Positions 2 to 27,680 are shown, numbered from the stretch's first letter. The stretch: DNA of 64,000 bases from Rickettsiales bacterium (GCA_049418765.1 JBMSJJ010000002.1:104031-168030), one strand, 5' to 3'. Made by a program: numbers and translations. Notes: generated by a model not told the origin, from the letters alone.

Positions 2-1165
2 GGAAAATTGCAGGCAAGGGCGGTGCTCAAAGATGTAGGGCGAGTGCTGGATATGCCTTATAATCAGGTCGATAGAATTTGCAAACTAATTCCATTTAAT
101 GCTGTGGAAGCGGTAACTTTAGAAAAAGCTATCGAGATGGATAAAGATCTTCAGCAAGCCATTAAAGATGATCCGCAAATTAAAAAATTGGTCGATATTG
201 GATTGAGGCTAGAAGGTCTGAATCGACACGCTTCAACTCATGCCGCAGGTGTAGTAATTGGCGATAAGCCACTTCACGAAATTTGTGGTCTTTATAATGA
301 CGAAGGCTCAACAATGTCGGCGGTGGGCTACTCCATGAAATATGCCGAGTTGGCTGGTTTGGTAAAATTCGATTTTTTAGGCTTAAAAACATTAACCACA
401 ATTTTAGAAACTGTAAAGCTGGTAGAAAAAACTCGTAACATAAAAATTGATATAAATAATTTACGCTTAGACGATAAAGAAACTTTCAAAATGCTTGCCA
501 GTGGCGATTCAATCGGGGTTTTCCAAATTGAATCTTCGGGTATGCGTTCGGTTCTTCGAAAAATGAAAGCCGATAAAATTGAAGATATTATTGCTCTTAT
601 TTCGCTTTATCGCCCAGGTCCGATGGATAATATTCCAACCTATATTCGACGCAAACATGGCGAAGAAGAAATTAAATATCCACATCCGCTTTTAGAGTCC
701 GTTTTAAGAGAAACTTATGGTGTAATTGTTTATCAAGAACAGGTGATGGAAATTGCCAAGATTTTGGCGGGTTATAGCCTCGGAGGTGCCGATTTACTGC
801 GTCGAGCTATGGGTAAAAAAATTAAGGAAGAGATGGATAAACAGCGCGAGATTTTCGTTTCTGGTTGTCAAAAAAATAATATTGAAAGCAATCAAGCCAA
901 TGAAATATTTGATTTGGTCGATAAATTTGCAGGCTACGGATTCAACAAATCTCACGCCGCCGCCTATGCGATGATTTCTTATCAAACCGCTTATTTGAAA
1001 GCACATTTTTTGCCAGAATTTTTAACCGCTTCGATTAATTTAGAGATTGATAATACCGATAAAATAAATATTTTTTTACAAGTCGCCAAAAGTCACAAAA
1101 TTCCTGTGTTGCCACCCGATATAAATCAAAGTATGGCAGATTTTTCCATCGAAATTTTGCAGTAA
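2..1165 (+). CDS. dnaE: DNA polymerase III alpha subunit, 5'-partial at window edge and C-terminally truncated (ends PPDINQSMADFSIEILQ*)
   Basis: Motifs RHASTHAAGVVI, KFDFLGLKTLT, GVFQIES, LYRPGPM, YQEQVM, ADLLRRAMGKK, KFAGYGFNKSHAAAY. Stop TAA 1163-1165 comes before the HhH/OB/CTD region. Confidence 0.97.
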   Translation, partial: GKLQARAVLKDVGRVLDMPYNQVDRICKLIPFNAVEAVTLEKAIEMDKDLQQAIKDDPQIKKLVDIGLRLEGLNRHASTHAAGVVIGDKPLHEICGLYNDEGSTMSAVGYSMKYAELAGLVKFDFLGLKTLTTILETVKLVEKTRNIKIDINNLRLDDKETFKMLASGDSIGVFQIESSGMRSVLRKMKADKIEDIIALISLYRPGPMDNIPTYIRRKHGEEEIKYPHPLLESVLRETYGVIVYQEQVMEIAKILAGYSLGGADLLRRAMGKKIKEEMDKQREIFVSGCQKNNIESNQANEIFDLVDKFAGYGFNKSHAAAYAMISYQTAYLKAHFLPEFLTASINLEIDNTDKINIFLQVAKSHKIPVLPPDINQSMADFSIEILQ

Positions 1166-4100
1166 ATGGATTATAAAACTAAACTCAAAAATATCACCAG
1201 CTCAACCACCTTATGTAAGGTTCCAAACGACTCAATGGGATTTCTGGCATCGGAAATTGCCAATAATTTTTCAGCTAATGATAAAATTTTTATTGCCGAA
1301 AATGATGCTCAAATCAACATCATCAATCAGCAAATAAAATTTTTTTTACCCGAACAAAAAATTCTAAATTTTTATGGATTTGATTGCTCGCCTTACGATA
1401 AAATTTCGCCTAAACCACAAATTCTAGCCAGTAGAATCAAGACCTTATACGAAATTATCAATCGTGTGGCAAATGAAAATTTATTCCTAATTACTTCGGT
1501 TAATGCCATTGTTCAAAAAAATATTAGCCCCGAAATTGTCAAAAATTTAGGCTTGAGCATTAAGGCTAAAACCAAATATTCACTCTCGCAGGTTGTCGAT
1601 TTTTTAATTGCCAAAGGCTATGAAAGAATGTCGAACGCCAATAATGTCGGAGAATTTGCGGTACGCGGAGGAATTGTTGATGTTGTAATTATGCAAGCTT
1701 CTGACTTACTTGGTTATCGAATTGATTTTTTTGGCGATGAAATTGAGTCCATCAAAATCTTCGACCCAATCACTCAATTAAGCTATGAAAATGTTAAAAG
1801 TTTCGAGGTTTTACCCGCCAGCGAAGTGATTTTAAATCAGCAAACCATCGCCAATTTTCGGGAAAAATATCGTAAGCTATTTGGTTCTTCAATCGATGAC
1901 CAATTTTATCAGGCGATTTCCGAAGGTCGCACTTTTGATGGCATGGAGCATTGGCTACCGCTTTTTTACCAACAAGATTTGGTTTCGATTATAGATTTTT
2001 TAAAAAATCCGATTATTTTTCATAATAATCAAATTTTTGATCAAATTAAAAATCGTCACCAAGAAATTTTGGAATTATATCAAACGAGGTTTGAACAAAA
2101 AAAATCCTCGCTAAATTTTTATAATCCAATCAAGCCAGAATTAATGTATTTTGAAGAAAAGGAAATTGTTGAAAAAATTCAAAAAAATATCGCCATTAAT
2201 TTTGCTTTTGGAGATTTAGATGAGTTGCAACGAAAAAACTCACGAGTTATCGATTTAAATGCCAATTTGGTGCCGGATTTTTCTTTGGCATCAAGGTCAA
2301 ATAAGAAAGATGTTTTAGAAATATTTCAAGATTTTTTACAAAATTATCGGCAAAAAAGAGTTGCCGTTGCAGTTTTAAGTGAAGGCTTTAAAGAGCGATT
2401 AAGTCGCTATTTTCATGATTACAACATTGCTTTAGAATTTATAAATAATTACGCAGATTTCACGAAAATTAAATTTGGTAAAATTGCGAGTTTTATTTTG
2501 CCAATGCAATTTGGTTTTGAATTTGATGATTTTGTTGTGATTGGGGAGCAGGCGATTTTTGGCGAAAAATTACTTCGTCAAAAAATTTCCAAAACCGCCT
2601 CACAAAGAATTTTAGAAGAAAGTTTGAGCATAAATCAGGGTGATTTGGTAGTGCATCGTGACCATGGAATTGGCAAATTTGATGGCATACAAACCATCAC
2701 CGCTCTTGGCATAAAGACTGATATGATAAAAATTATTTATGGTGGCGGTGATAATTTATTTGTGCCAGTTGATAATATTAATTTGATAACTCGATATGGC
2801 GCTGAAAACCCGCTAATCCAACTTGATCGCTTGGGTGTTGCGGGTTGGAAAAATCGGCGAGAAGCGGTGCGTAAAAAAATTCGGGTAACTGCCGAGGAGC
2901 TTCTAAAAATCTCCGCTGAAAGGCAATTGAAAAAAGCTAGAATCTATGTTCCTGAAACTTTTTTCTATGATGAATTTAAGGCGAAATTTGGTTATGTCGA
3001 AACTCAAGACCAGATGAAAGCAATCGAAGATGTTGAAGGTGATTTGCAAAAAGGTTCGCCGATGGATCGCTTAATTTGTGGCGATGTGGGTTTTGGCAAA
3101 ACCGAAGTTGCCATTCGAGCAAGTGCCATTGTTGCCAAACAAAGCCAAGTTGCCATTATCGCTCCAACTACGATTTTGGTTAGGCAACATTACAAAAATT
3201 TTACCCAAAGATTCGCCCATACCGACATTAAAATTGCTCAATTATCGCGCATGGTTAGTAGTGGCGATGCCAAAAAAATTCGTGAAGAAATCGCCGATGG
3301 TTCAATTAAAATCATCATCGGCACCCACGCCTTATTGCAAAAATCAATTAAATTTCATGATCTTGGATTGTTGATTATCGATGAAGAACAGCATTTTGGC
3401 GTCGCTCAAAAAGAGATGTTAAAAAAAATGCGCAATAATATTCATGTGCTAACCTTGTCGGCAACCCCAATTCCAAGAACTTTGCAAATGTCTTTGGCGG
3501 GAGTCCGCGATTTAAGCCTGATTGCCACCCCTCCAATCGATAGAATTGCGGTGCGAAATTTTGTGATGACCTATGACAGCATCATCGTCAAAGAAGCGAT
3601 AATGCGTGAATATAACCGAAGTGGCAAGGTGTTTTTTGTAGTGCCGAGAGTCAAGGATATTGAGGAGATGGAGCCGAGGCTGAAAAATTTACTGCCCGAT
3701 TTAAAAATTAGATTCGCCCATGGTCAAATGTCGGCAATCGAACTTGAAGACATAATGAATGATTTTATTGATGGCAAAATTGATGTGTTGCTGTCGACCA
3801 CCATTATTGAGTCGGGCATTGATATTTCTAGCGCTAACACCATGATAATTTATAAGGCAGAAATGTTTGGCTTGTCGCAATTATATCAACTTCGTGGCAG
3901 GGTTGGTCGAGGCAAAATCCGTGGCTATTGCTATTTTATGCTCAGCAACAAACAACATTTACCAAAAGAAGCCAAGCAAAAATTGGAGGTAATGCAAAAT
4001 CTCGATGACCTCGGAGTTGGCTTTAGCATTGCTTCTTACGATATGGATATTCGCGGTAGTGGCAATATTTTGGGCGACGAACAATCGGGGCATATCAAAG

Positions 4101-26881: not shown

Positions 26882-26929
26882 ATCTATAATTTTACCAACA
26901 CCCTTCGAAATCTGGCTTCTTGGTTGCAT

Positions 26930-27680
26930 CAGGGTAAAATTTTCTTCTGACAAAATTAGCGGTGTTATCACCATGGCTAGTTGCTCAATTTATAAAATTC
27001 CTAGGCTAAAAGTGAGTAAAATTTTCTTCTGACAAAATTAGCGGTGTTATCACCCTTCCCCGTTGCTAAGAGGGTAAAATTTTCTGCAAAGAAAATTTTG
27101 GGAGGGGGAGTTTTGGTTTATCAAGGAAATTTACTTTATCAAATTATTTGGAGTTTTAATTATAATTCCTTTGCCCCCTCCCAAAATTTTTTTTGATAAA
27201 AAAAATTTTACCCTCCCGCGAAGGGGAGGGTGATGAAACCGCTTTTTTTGATAAAAAAAATTTTACCCTCTTAGCAACGGGGAGGGTGATGAAACCGCTT
27301 TTTTTGATAAAAAAAATTTTACCCTCTTAGCAACGGGGAGGGTGATGAAACCGCTTTTGATAACACCGCTTTTTTGATAATTTTTTTGACCCCCACGGCT
27401 AAAAGTTTTAACTACAGTTAAATTCTTTTCGTCCGCTCCCTGCGTAAAGCGGTGGAGCTAAGAACCGCTTTCGTTGCGAGCATATTTCAATAATCGTATT
27501 TTTTAAAAATTACTTAAAAGAATAATATAGGGGTGTAAGACTTGCTAAGAGGGTAAAATTTCCTCTGGCAAAATTAGCGGTCTCATCACCCTATTTCCTC
27601 TAGCAAAATTAGCGGTCTCATCACCCTCCCCGTTGCTATGAGGGTAAAATTTTCTGCAAAGAAAATTTTGGGAGGGAGAG
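26930..27680. repeat. Cluster of palindromic REP/CIR-like elements in both orientations, including a 56-bp tandem array
   Basis: Core CCCTCCC-AAAATTTT-x-AAAATTTT-ACCCTC-(CCGCGAA/TTAGCAAC)-GGGGAGGG-TGATGAAACCGC. Minus copies at about 26930-26972, 27014-27110 and 27542-27680; plus copy from 27174 followed by 56-bp tandem units to about 27355; diverged copy at 27390-27470. Confidence 0.92.

Follow-up and report, generated by a model that had tools for sequence, protein, structure and literature searches.

A probable ancient, intein-free fission of dnaE and a shortened isoleucyl-tRNA synthetase in a Rickettsiales-like lineage of freshwater bacteria

Essential enzymes that are naturally split without inteins include the leucyl-tRNA synthetase (LeuRS) of Aquifex aeolicus, made of α and β chains, and the products of the split genes of Nanoarchaeum. 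In Rickettsia, palindromic elements are known as repeats inserted in frame into housekeeping proteins. The isoleucyl-tRNA synthetase (IleRS) of Escherichia coli, cut at many sites, reportedly reassembles from its fragments, as Shiba and Schimmel described in 1992. Here, a 64,000-nucleotide stretch of DNA from a Rickettsiales bacterium (GCA_049418765.1, JBMSJJ010000002.1:104031-168030; "the window" below) is analyzed, in which both dnaE, encoding the α subunit of DNA polymerase III (Pol III), and ileS, encoding IleRS, stop early. A split replicative polymerase is otherwise known only with inteins that rejoin its halves. The split dnaE of cyanobacteria resembles the present one in that Pol III α comes from two distant genes cut in the fingers region; in contrast, the present genes have no intein halves, are cut ~70 residues further downstream, and belong to a Rickettsiales-like lineage. 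What is shared with Aquifex LeuRS and the Nanoarchaeum genes is a housekeeping gene broken in two, with separately encoded products that come together again; the protein and the lineage differ. The available part of a 2014 survey of ~2000 genomes mentions only the intein-split cyanobacterial dnaE, fragmented sequences having been rejoined there as probable errors (PMC3919608). No literature report was found of an intein-free split dnaE, nor of a split or truncated alphaproteobacterial IleRS, among sources that did not cover the supplementary tables of two preprints, one on IleRS (10.64898/2026.02.03.703510) and one on freshwater epibionts (10.1101/2023.01.31.526412), which might list such forms.

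The sequence-only reading of the window had proposed that palindromic repeats enter tolerant loops of essential genes and that recombination between copies then separates the gene halves, which survive as self-assembling two-chain enzymes. It had suggested looking for partner genes, for selection on both halves, and for insertions at the breakpoints in sister taxa. The reading favored here, to which we give a probability of about 0.78, is that of an ancient, intein-free fission of dnaE at a loop, accompanied by a lineage-wide shortened IleRS, the repeats being unrelated. For dnaE, fission at a permissive loop is supported. Comparison of 29 window proteins with curated full-length family models revealed internal truncation only in dnaE and ileS; in the same comparison, cysS is cut by the window end and a SulP transporter reaches position 517 of the 572 of its best model. 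The window holds the following part of dnaE:

2-1165, plus strand: 3' part of dnaE-N, encoding the Pfam domains DNA_pol3_alpha (PF07733) and DNA_pol3_finger (PF17657), with its stop codon TAA at 1163-1165

This stop codon abuts the ATG of mfd at 1166, with 0 nt between them. The full DnaE-N chain (P0001, 830 aa, 100% identical to the part encoded in the window) aligns to residues 6-826 of the 1160 of E. coli Pol III α and to positions 6-818 of the 1146 of the NCBIfam model NF004226, scoring 1184.8 bits against a cut-off of 1002. It carries the PHP, palm, and thumb domains and most of the fingers, which make up the catalytic core of a DnaE1-type enzyme. The HhH region, the clamp-binding motif, the OB fold, and the C-terminal domain, found on the same chain in DnaE1-type enzymes, are missing from the polypeptide.

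A genome scan with the full DnaE-N protein yielded 80 loci, 20 of which are those of relatives (L001-L016 and L027-L030; 67-83% DnaE-N identity; ~240 kb), with up to 10 kb of DNA on each side of dnaE-N and less on short contigs. These 20 loci belong to freshwater metagenome-assembled genomes, mostly labelled Rickettsiales, one of them as 'Rickettsiales bacterium UBA1997'. With a G+C content of ~31%, alphaproteobacterial housekeeping genes, the amino-acid biosynthesis genes hom, proB, hisG, and leuD, a large VirB6-like protein, and proline-rich repeat proteins, the window fits a low-GC freshwater alphaproteobacterium of the Rickettsiales-like lineage containing this UBA1997 bacterium. According to the accessible part of one study, members of the family UBA1997 are freshwater epibionts on cryptophytes that retain amino-acid biosynthesis (10.1101/2023.01.31.526412).

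The end point of DnaE-N is shared throughout this lineage. The stop at 1165, from which dnaE had been taken to be broken, recurs at the same site in 16 of the 17 related loci with a 3' end present, that of L004 being frameshifted; three more loci run off their contigs. HHH_6 is missing in 119 of the 120 best listed DnaE-N relatives (8000 scored), of which 113 are 799-861 aa long, four reach 918-922 aa by a ~90-aa N-terminal extension, and two are 727-aa fragments. The extension (in P0082 and six similar proteins) is of low complexity, and the C-terminal end point of the proteins bearing it is unchanged. All 20 sampled C-termini finish 2-5 residues past the motif F(S/A)(I/V)E. Against five relatives, the N half has a low ratio of nonsynonymous to synonymous substitution rates (dN/dS), 0.03-0.08, at a dS near saturation. 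In a tree of 77 rows, from which L016, L030, and L062 (truncated) and L040 (<700 aa) were left out, the 19 split dnaE rows form one group, with a support of 99 in the SH-like approximate likelihood-ratio test (SH-aLRT), and a single change suffices to explain them; L071 and L073 form the sister lineage (support 99). The split is judged old because it has one origin on the tree and is common to lineages with 67-83% DnaE-N identity. We regard the dnaE break as a real, ancient, and inherited gene fission with one origin in the lineage, as far as sequence comparison can tell.

The missing half was found as a separate gene in relatives. A DnaE-C profile, built from 19 full-length C-terminal parts and run with hmmsearch on six-frame open reading frames (ORFs), matches intact ORFs in two of the 20 related loci:

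L028:1076-2284, same strand as dnaE-N: dnaE-C, 402 aa, 7.7 kb upstream of dnaE-N
L016:4241-5437, divergent from dnaE-N: dnaE-C, with 157 bp between the two starts (head-to-head)

Both ORFs hold HHH_6, the OB fold, and the motif SNQM(S/T)(L/F)F, which we take to agree with the QxxLF clamp-binding consensus. A phmmer search with the L028 protein against 1.84 billion representatives returned seven further stand-alone representatives of 359-414 aa (E 1e-64 to 1e-89), ordinary DnaE proteins ranking below them (E 1e-50 and weaker). Every stand-alone DnaE-C opens with a methionine and 5-25 residues, followed by AIRFGLGAIKAVG. A partner half, expected if the gene had been split rather than truncated, thus exists in these relatives as a stand-alone gene of ~360-415 aa. 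One representative, P0391, spans positions 823-1136 of NF004226, complementary to and abutting positions 6-818 covered by P0001. It is deposited as 'hypothetical protein' (NBX52482.1, NCA28850.1) and scores 173 bits against the cut-off of 1002; with such a score and label, annotation pipelines will therefore report a truncated dnaE in these genomes. The DnaE-N protein P0009, 92% identical to that of the window, has accessions (NBX52996.1, NCA27928.1) in the same two series as P0391, and for that reason both halves probably occur in the same two assemblies. Between L016 and L028, dS of dnaE-C is saturated at 49% amino acid identity, so that dN/dS is uninformative for this half.

Strands F.VE and IRYAL flank the dnaE cut. 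From PPDxN to IRYAL, the 25 full-length loci in which both patterns were found have 12-20 residues in 23 cases, 31 in L073, and 37 in L071. Loop length thus varies among full-length DnaE proteins, in agreement with the earlier claim of a break at a loop, and the cut lies in a permissive loop of variable length, the turn of a β-hairpin in the fingers domain. The sister lineage (L071 and L073) has an insertion of ~20-25 residues exactly at this loop. As to the association of breakpoints with repeat-derived insertions in sister taxa, the insertion is thus present at the expected place, and the repeat is absent from the breakpoints and from the insertion-coding DNA. In the C pieces P0390 and P0392, the leaders (..KKYDQNGKELAIRFG) are similar to the distal end of the insertion in L071 (..KKYHREEELAVRYGF), a short motif which suggests that the loop was enlarged first and that fission occurred second, inside the enlarged loop. 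The N piece ends 2-7 residues past the FSIE strand and the C piece starts 5-25 residues before AIRFG; since no room is left at either chain end, intein halves are excluded, and unlike those of cyanobacterial split dnaE the products must remain separate. In models of the cyanobacterial halves, that break maps close to residue 753-758 of the N piece.

To what extent the two chains may assemble was modelled with residues 430-874 of the L028 N piece and the L028 C piece, using self-supplied alignments. The complex scores 0.75 versus 0.01 for the best of three controls; of 80 solved complexes, 58 reached this mark, as did 2 of 110 mismatched pairs, counts that are only rough with alignments of this origin. 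Between runs, at least 47% of contacts are shared, and the predicted local distance difference test (pLDDT) value of the partner is at least 71. In the model, the strand that closes the N piece packs against the one that opens the C piece, with contacts between N residues 853-874 and C residues 3-15, the closest pairs being those of N 853-869 with C 6-11, in the hairpin. Because the undivided protein has been solved as a single chain, this pass of its two halves may reflect likeness to solved structures. Of the two-chain, self-assembling enzyme proposed earlier, the separate C gene is established in relatives, and the predicted strand pairing, read with this reservation, points to a non-covalent reassembly of DnaE-N and DnaE-C.

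Taken together, a single ancient and intein-free fission would have struck dnaE in a hairpin-turn loop already enlarged in the sister lineage. Its two separate products would be a DnaE-N of ~830 aa, comprising the catalytic core, and a DnaE-C of ~360-415 aa, comprising the HhH region, the clamp-binding motif SNQMSLFG, the OB fold, and the τ-binding C-terminus; the chains would reassemble by completing the hairpin and the fingers/HhH interface. A rearrangement with one of its ends in the loop likely produced the break. In L016, the only locus with neighboring halves, these lie head-to-head, an arrangement that one inversion would give. A Pol III α kept as two chains would show that the fingers/HhH junction tolerates a permanent break, and the cut would provide a natural, intein-free split site for the Pol III α family.

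The second shortened gene is ileS:

6985-9594, minus strand: ileS, encoding a type-2 IleRS of 869 aa that ends inside the first anticodon-recognition domain (ARD1), without ARD2, INS, and ARD3

Its TGA stop codon overlaps the ATG of the next gene, encoding a DUF3137 protein (ATGA). The window IleRS aligns to residues 40-770 of Thermus thermophilus IleRS, 38-767 of the 1032 of Priestia megaterium IleRS2 (PmIleRS2), and 31-762 of the 1024 of the MupA model; since the alignments stop at 767/1032 and 762/1024, ~260 C-terminal residues are missing. It scores 816 bits with TIGR00392 (cut-off 621), and its best solved relatives are type-2 enzymes. The type-2 core, composed of the catalytic HUP, CP, editing, and ARD1 domains, is present; the type-2 C-terminus, composed of ARD2 (with or without INS) and ARD3, is not. 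The 120 best listed relatives (7999 scored) measure 808-929 aa or, where an endonuclease domain is inserted, 977-1087 aa; none is long enough to accommodate the C-terminus, and all eight aligned full sequences terminate 5-9 residues past (Y/F)VWxxL. As regards the earlier claim of a second essential gene broken at a loop, the loss of ~260 residues at an end common to the eight aligned relatives stands, and the end falls within a Pfam domain, Anticodon_1, of whose 148 model positions 1-89 are matched. The shortened IleRS appears, on these alignments, to be a second lineage-wide trait, the ARD2/ARD3 module being either encoded elsewhere or lost. The preprint cited above describes, in its available part, a remodelling of the C-terminal end of IleRS in which INS is lost and ARD3 is exchanged for a zinc-binding domain (10.64898/2026.02.03.703510). 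The likeness lies in a changing C-terminal tRNA-binding end; here, everything past the middle of ARD1 is missing from the polypeptide. Its data set, as described there, admitted only enzymes with one or more type-specific C-terminal domains, a rule under which shortened forms of this kind would have been left out (10.64898/2026.02.03.703510).

Outright loss of ARD2, INS, and ARD3 rather than relocation would leave an 869-aa minimal IleRS whose anticodon reading relies on ARD1 and perhaps also on insertions specific to the lineage, and we give this explanation somewhat less than even odds. In its favor, no C-terminal piece was recognized with the Pfam Anticodon_1 and IleRS C-terminal models among the window ORFs or the 140 ORFs (22 + 118) of the 20 related loci, no proper search for a stand-alone ARD2-ARD3 having been made. 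The ARD1 equivalents of PmIleRS2 residues N647, F651, and R721, which read A35 and U36 in the Priestia enzyme according to the accessible part of the preprint (10.64898/2026.02.03.703510), are kept, S713 being replaced by N, and an N-terminal insertion is conserved in the family. The same source reports an ongoing loss of C-terminal IleRS elements in prokaryotes, yet also that the ARD3 mutation R964A of PmIleRS2 abolishes both charging and complementation (10.64898/2026.02.03.703510). Also against loss, the lineage offers in dnaE an example of a missing C-terminus encoded by a gene of its own. The reported reassembly of E. coli IleRS concerns an engineered system, whose likeness is that of a cut IleRS coming together again, the partner piece being only hypothetical here. 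The shortened IleRS bears directly on the current question of which C-terminal domains of IleRS are dispensable.

In-frame insertions in synthetase loops, noted earlier, are indeed present. With respect to solved structures, the window IleRS has three extra segments (aa ~42-76, ~357-375, and ~429-447), at sites whose lengths vary within the family, and the prolyl-tRNA synthetase (ProRS) has ~15 extra residues in a short insertion region (DNA 13841-13975). Two of the IleRS sites are located as follows:

9367-9468, minus strand: N-terminal IleRS insertion, aa ~43-76, conserved in the family
8245-8328, minus strand: IleRS editing-domain loop after CPVDEAGKF, aa ~423-450, an insertion hot spot of the family

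The invariant residues of the N-terminal insertion (D50, N51, S53, P54, L61, H64, C67, R68, and H69) are those of an element that could bind a metal or contact the tRNA. The loop after CPVDEAGKF ranges from a few to ~185 residues within the family. In six of the 120 listed relatives (P0203, P0205, P0207, P0212, P0217, and P0225), it houses in frame a DUF559/Vsr-like endonuclease domain (PF04480, PF18741) of ~185 aa, flanked by PSPxxGEGWGEG and HPxLSPxGRG. Shorter inserts at this hot spot align to parts of the endonuclease domain and may be its deletion remnants. In L028, a 470-aa ileS ORF (12811-14223, minus strand; 59% identical to that of the window) stops exactly at this loop, the remainder of the gene lying outside the locus. 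It ends 186 bp from the convergent dnaE-N stop and adjoins a C5 methylase and an uncharacterized 339-aa ORF. Another fission, a duplicate of the gene, or a chimeric contig may explain this ileS ORF; as a single metagenome-assembled contig, it offers what appears to be the best support for breaks following insertion-tolerant loops.

A more far-reaching picture can be drawn for this epibiont family: a replicase whose core and clamp/τ-tethering module are never joined, an IleRS truly devoid of ARD2, INS, and ARD3 that recognizes tRNA-Ile without the domain holding the indispensable arginine of Priestia, and a loop enlargement leading to fission. That all of these hold at once seems unlikely. If it is true, this order of events, in which a loop first grows and the gene then breaks within it, would represent a general way in which natural split sites arise.

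Several points weigh against the combination of an ancient dnaE fission with a lineage-wide shortened IleRS. The dnaE tree was searched quickly and is rooted at its midpoint; many of its rows are skewed in composition relative to the alignment. A dnaE-C gene in the window's own genome would be predicted from relatives, and none was found in the 64-kb window by Pfam on its 51 ORFs or by the DnaE-C profile on six-frame ORFs. Neither does dnaE-C occur in 18 of the 20 related loci within the DNA at hand. The link between P0391 and P0009 is drawn solely from neighboring accession numbers. A search among shorter-length proteins with the C-terminal 336 aa of P0084 as query listed 120 short pieces, none of which comes from the lineage, a requirement for shared words being the likely cause; these 120 matches are contig-end fragments of ordinary DnaE. 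P0084 itself is a full-length DnaE relative of 1292 aa (60% identical) with an internal duplication of ~220 aa that is probably an assembly artefact. The inversion is suggested by one locus, L016, whose flanking genes (COQ7 on the left of dnaE-C) misfit its simplest version. The IleRS partner not recognized among the ORFs mentioned above counts here as well.

The palindromic repeats invoked as the cause of the breaks do form a family, present in ten copies with a unit of ~56 nt and a 10-bp hairpin of modest significance (z = -1.6), in two clusters:

5342-5503: repeat cluster 1, three copies, inside a 523-bp spacer
26931-27680: repeat cluster 2, seven copies in both orientations (copies at 26931-27659), in the 876-bp spacer between rplI and proB

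Cluster 2 includes a tandem array of 3.1 copies of 56 nt (27188-27358, 95% matches). Within region 1-27680, the clusters occupy the only large spacers (523 and 876 bp). A search with the repeat profile (nhmmer) retrieved all ten copies (E ≤2e-9) at these two intergenic sites of the 64-kb window and none in coding DNA or in the 80 fetched loci, which include those of the 20 relatives, the next-best matches having E 3.9-7.4. Searches with blastn-short for both breakpoints and the five insertion-coding segments returned only self matches and chance matches of 14-22 nt, in line with the caveat, already expressed in the sequence-only reading, that no repeat remnant is visible at the breakpoints. 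Rfam, run on the whole window, identified only a tRNA-Arg, the repeat matching no curated RNA family. The case of the Rickettsia palindromic elements is similar in that the bacteria are related, the repeats form hairpins, and housekeeping proteins contain in-frame insertions; in contrast, the present copies are all intergenic, and the IleRS and ProRS insertions share no DNA with the repeat. REP- and MITE-like repeats are short hairpin elements with numerous copies scattered through intergenic DNA; the present family counts ten copies at two sites of the 64 kb.

That repeats entered tolerant loops in frame and that recombination between copies split the genes has, in view of these searches, only a slim chance of being correct. 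Breaks or insertions do occupy insertion-tolerant loops, a hairpin family with recent tandem copies does exist, and a mobile-looking DUF559 endonuclease domain does sit in frame, in relatives, at the very IleRS loop where the L028 ileS stops. Against this, the ten copies all lie at two intergenic spots, the breakpoints and insertion segments match nothing but themselves or chance sequences, and the split is common to the whole clade while the repeats occur in no relative's locus. The repeats are of recent date, with tandem copies 95% alike, and the break is ancient, the split predating the divergence of the clade. The repeats appear, from their distribution, to be a young, lineage-specific intergenic element, bystanders unrelated to either break, and their association with the breaks a coincidence of neighborhood.

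Still less credible is an explanation of the truncations by pseudogenes, by frameshifts from sequencing, or by chimeric assembly. The relatives are indeed metagenome-assembled genomes, L004 has a frameshift near the end of dnaE-N, and P0084 carries its duplication; however, the same end point recurs in more than 100 independent assemblies, dN/dS is low, the next gene begins at or over the stop codon, and the ORF of the C piece is intact and has conserved motifs. Rejoining of the DnaE chains by protein trans-splicing, for which the split inteins of cyanobacterial dnaE are the known precedent in the part of the survey available (PMC3919608), may be dismissed, as the chain ends described above leave no space for intein halves and the cyanobacterial break lies ~70 residues upstream of the cut.

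Further genes surrounding the dnaE-N and ileS parts of the window are the following:

1166-4645, plus strand: mfd, the transcription-repair coupling factor, complete (NF007966 positions 27-1143 of 1148), beginning directly past the dnaE-N stop
4648-5304, plus strand: lysine-rich ORF of 218 aa without Pfam match, downstream of mfd
5828-6988, minus strand: gene for a DUF3137 membrane protein (Pfam), its ATG overlapping the ileS stop
13148-14500, plus strand: proS of the short alphaproteobacterial type, complete by its family model

The gene order had been described as shuffled yet tightly coupled, an apt description: 91% of region 1-27680 is coding, several adjacent genes overlap or sit 0-4 nt apart, and the order around dnaE-N varies among relatives. 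According to blastp, mfd follows dnaE-N in 7 of the 17 loci with a 3' end present, L013, in which only the start of an mfd-like ORF is visible, being a probable eighth; a lysine-rich ORF of ~180-220 aa also lies 3' of mfd in L003, L008, L010, L011, and L014. Upstream neighbors of dnaE-N in relatives include OmpH, a phytochelatin-synthase-like gene, and restriction-modification genes. Integrase genes are found near dnaE-N in L003, L009, and L013. Restriction-modification genes lie beside dnaE-N in L004 (7903-9998; a C5 methylase and a HaeII-type endonuclease) and beside the ileS fragment in L028 (14296-16282; a C5 methylase and an uncharacterized ORF).

In L010, sucC (1634-2821, plus strand) is broken by two adjacent in-frame TGA codons (1988-1993) at two conserved residues, the frame being unchanged. 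A reassignment of TGA in L010 is unlikely, because the other genes of this locus are long under code 11. Eukaryote-like or effector-like genes of the window, and one of a relative, are listed below:

61360-63591, minus strand: proline-rich tandem-repeat protein of 743 aa
35474-38911, plus strand: VirB6/TrbL protein of 1145 aa, adjoining hisG
L016:1-936, minus strand: ankyrin-repeat protein of a relative

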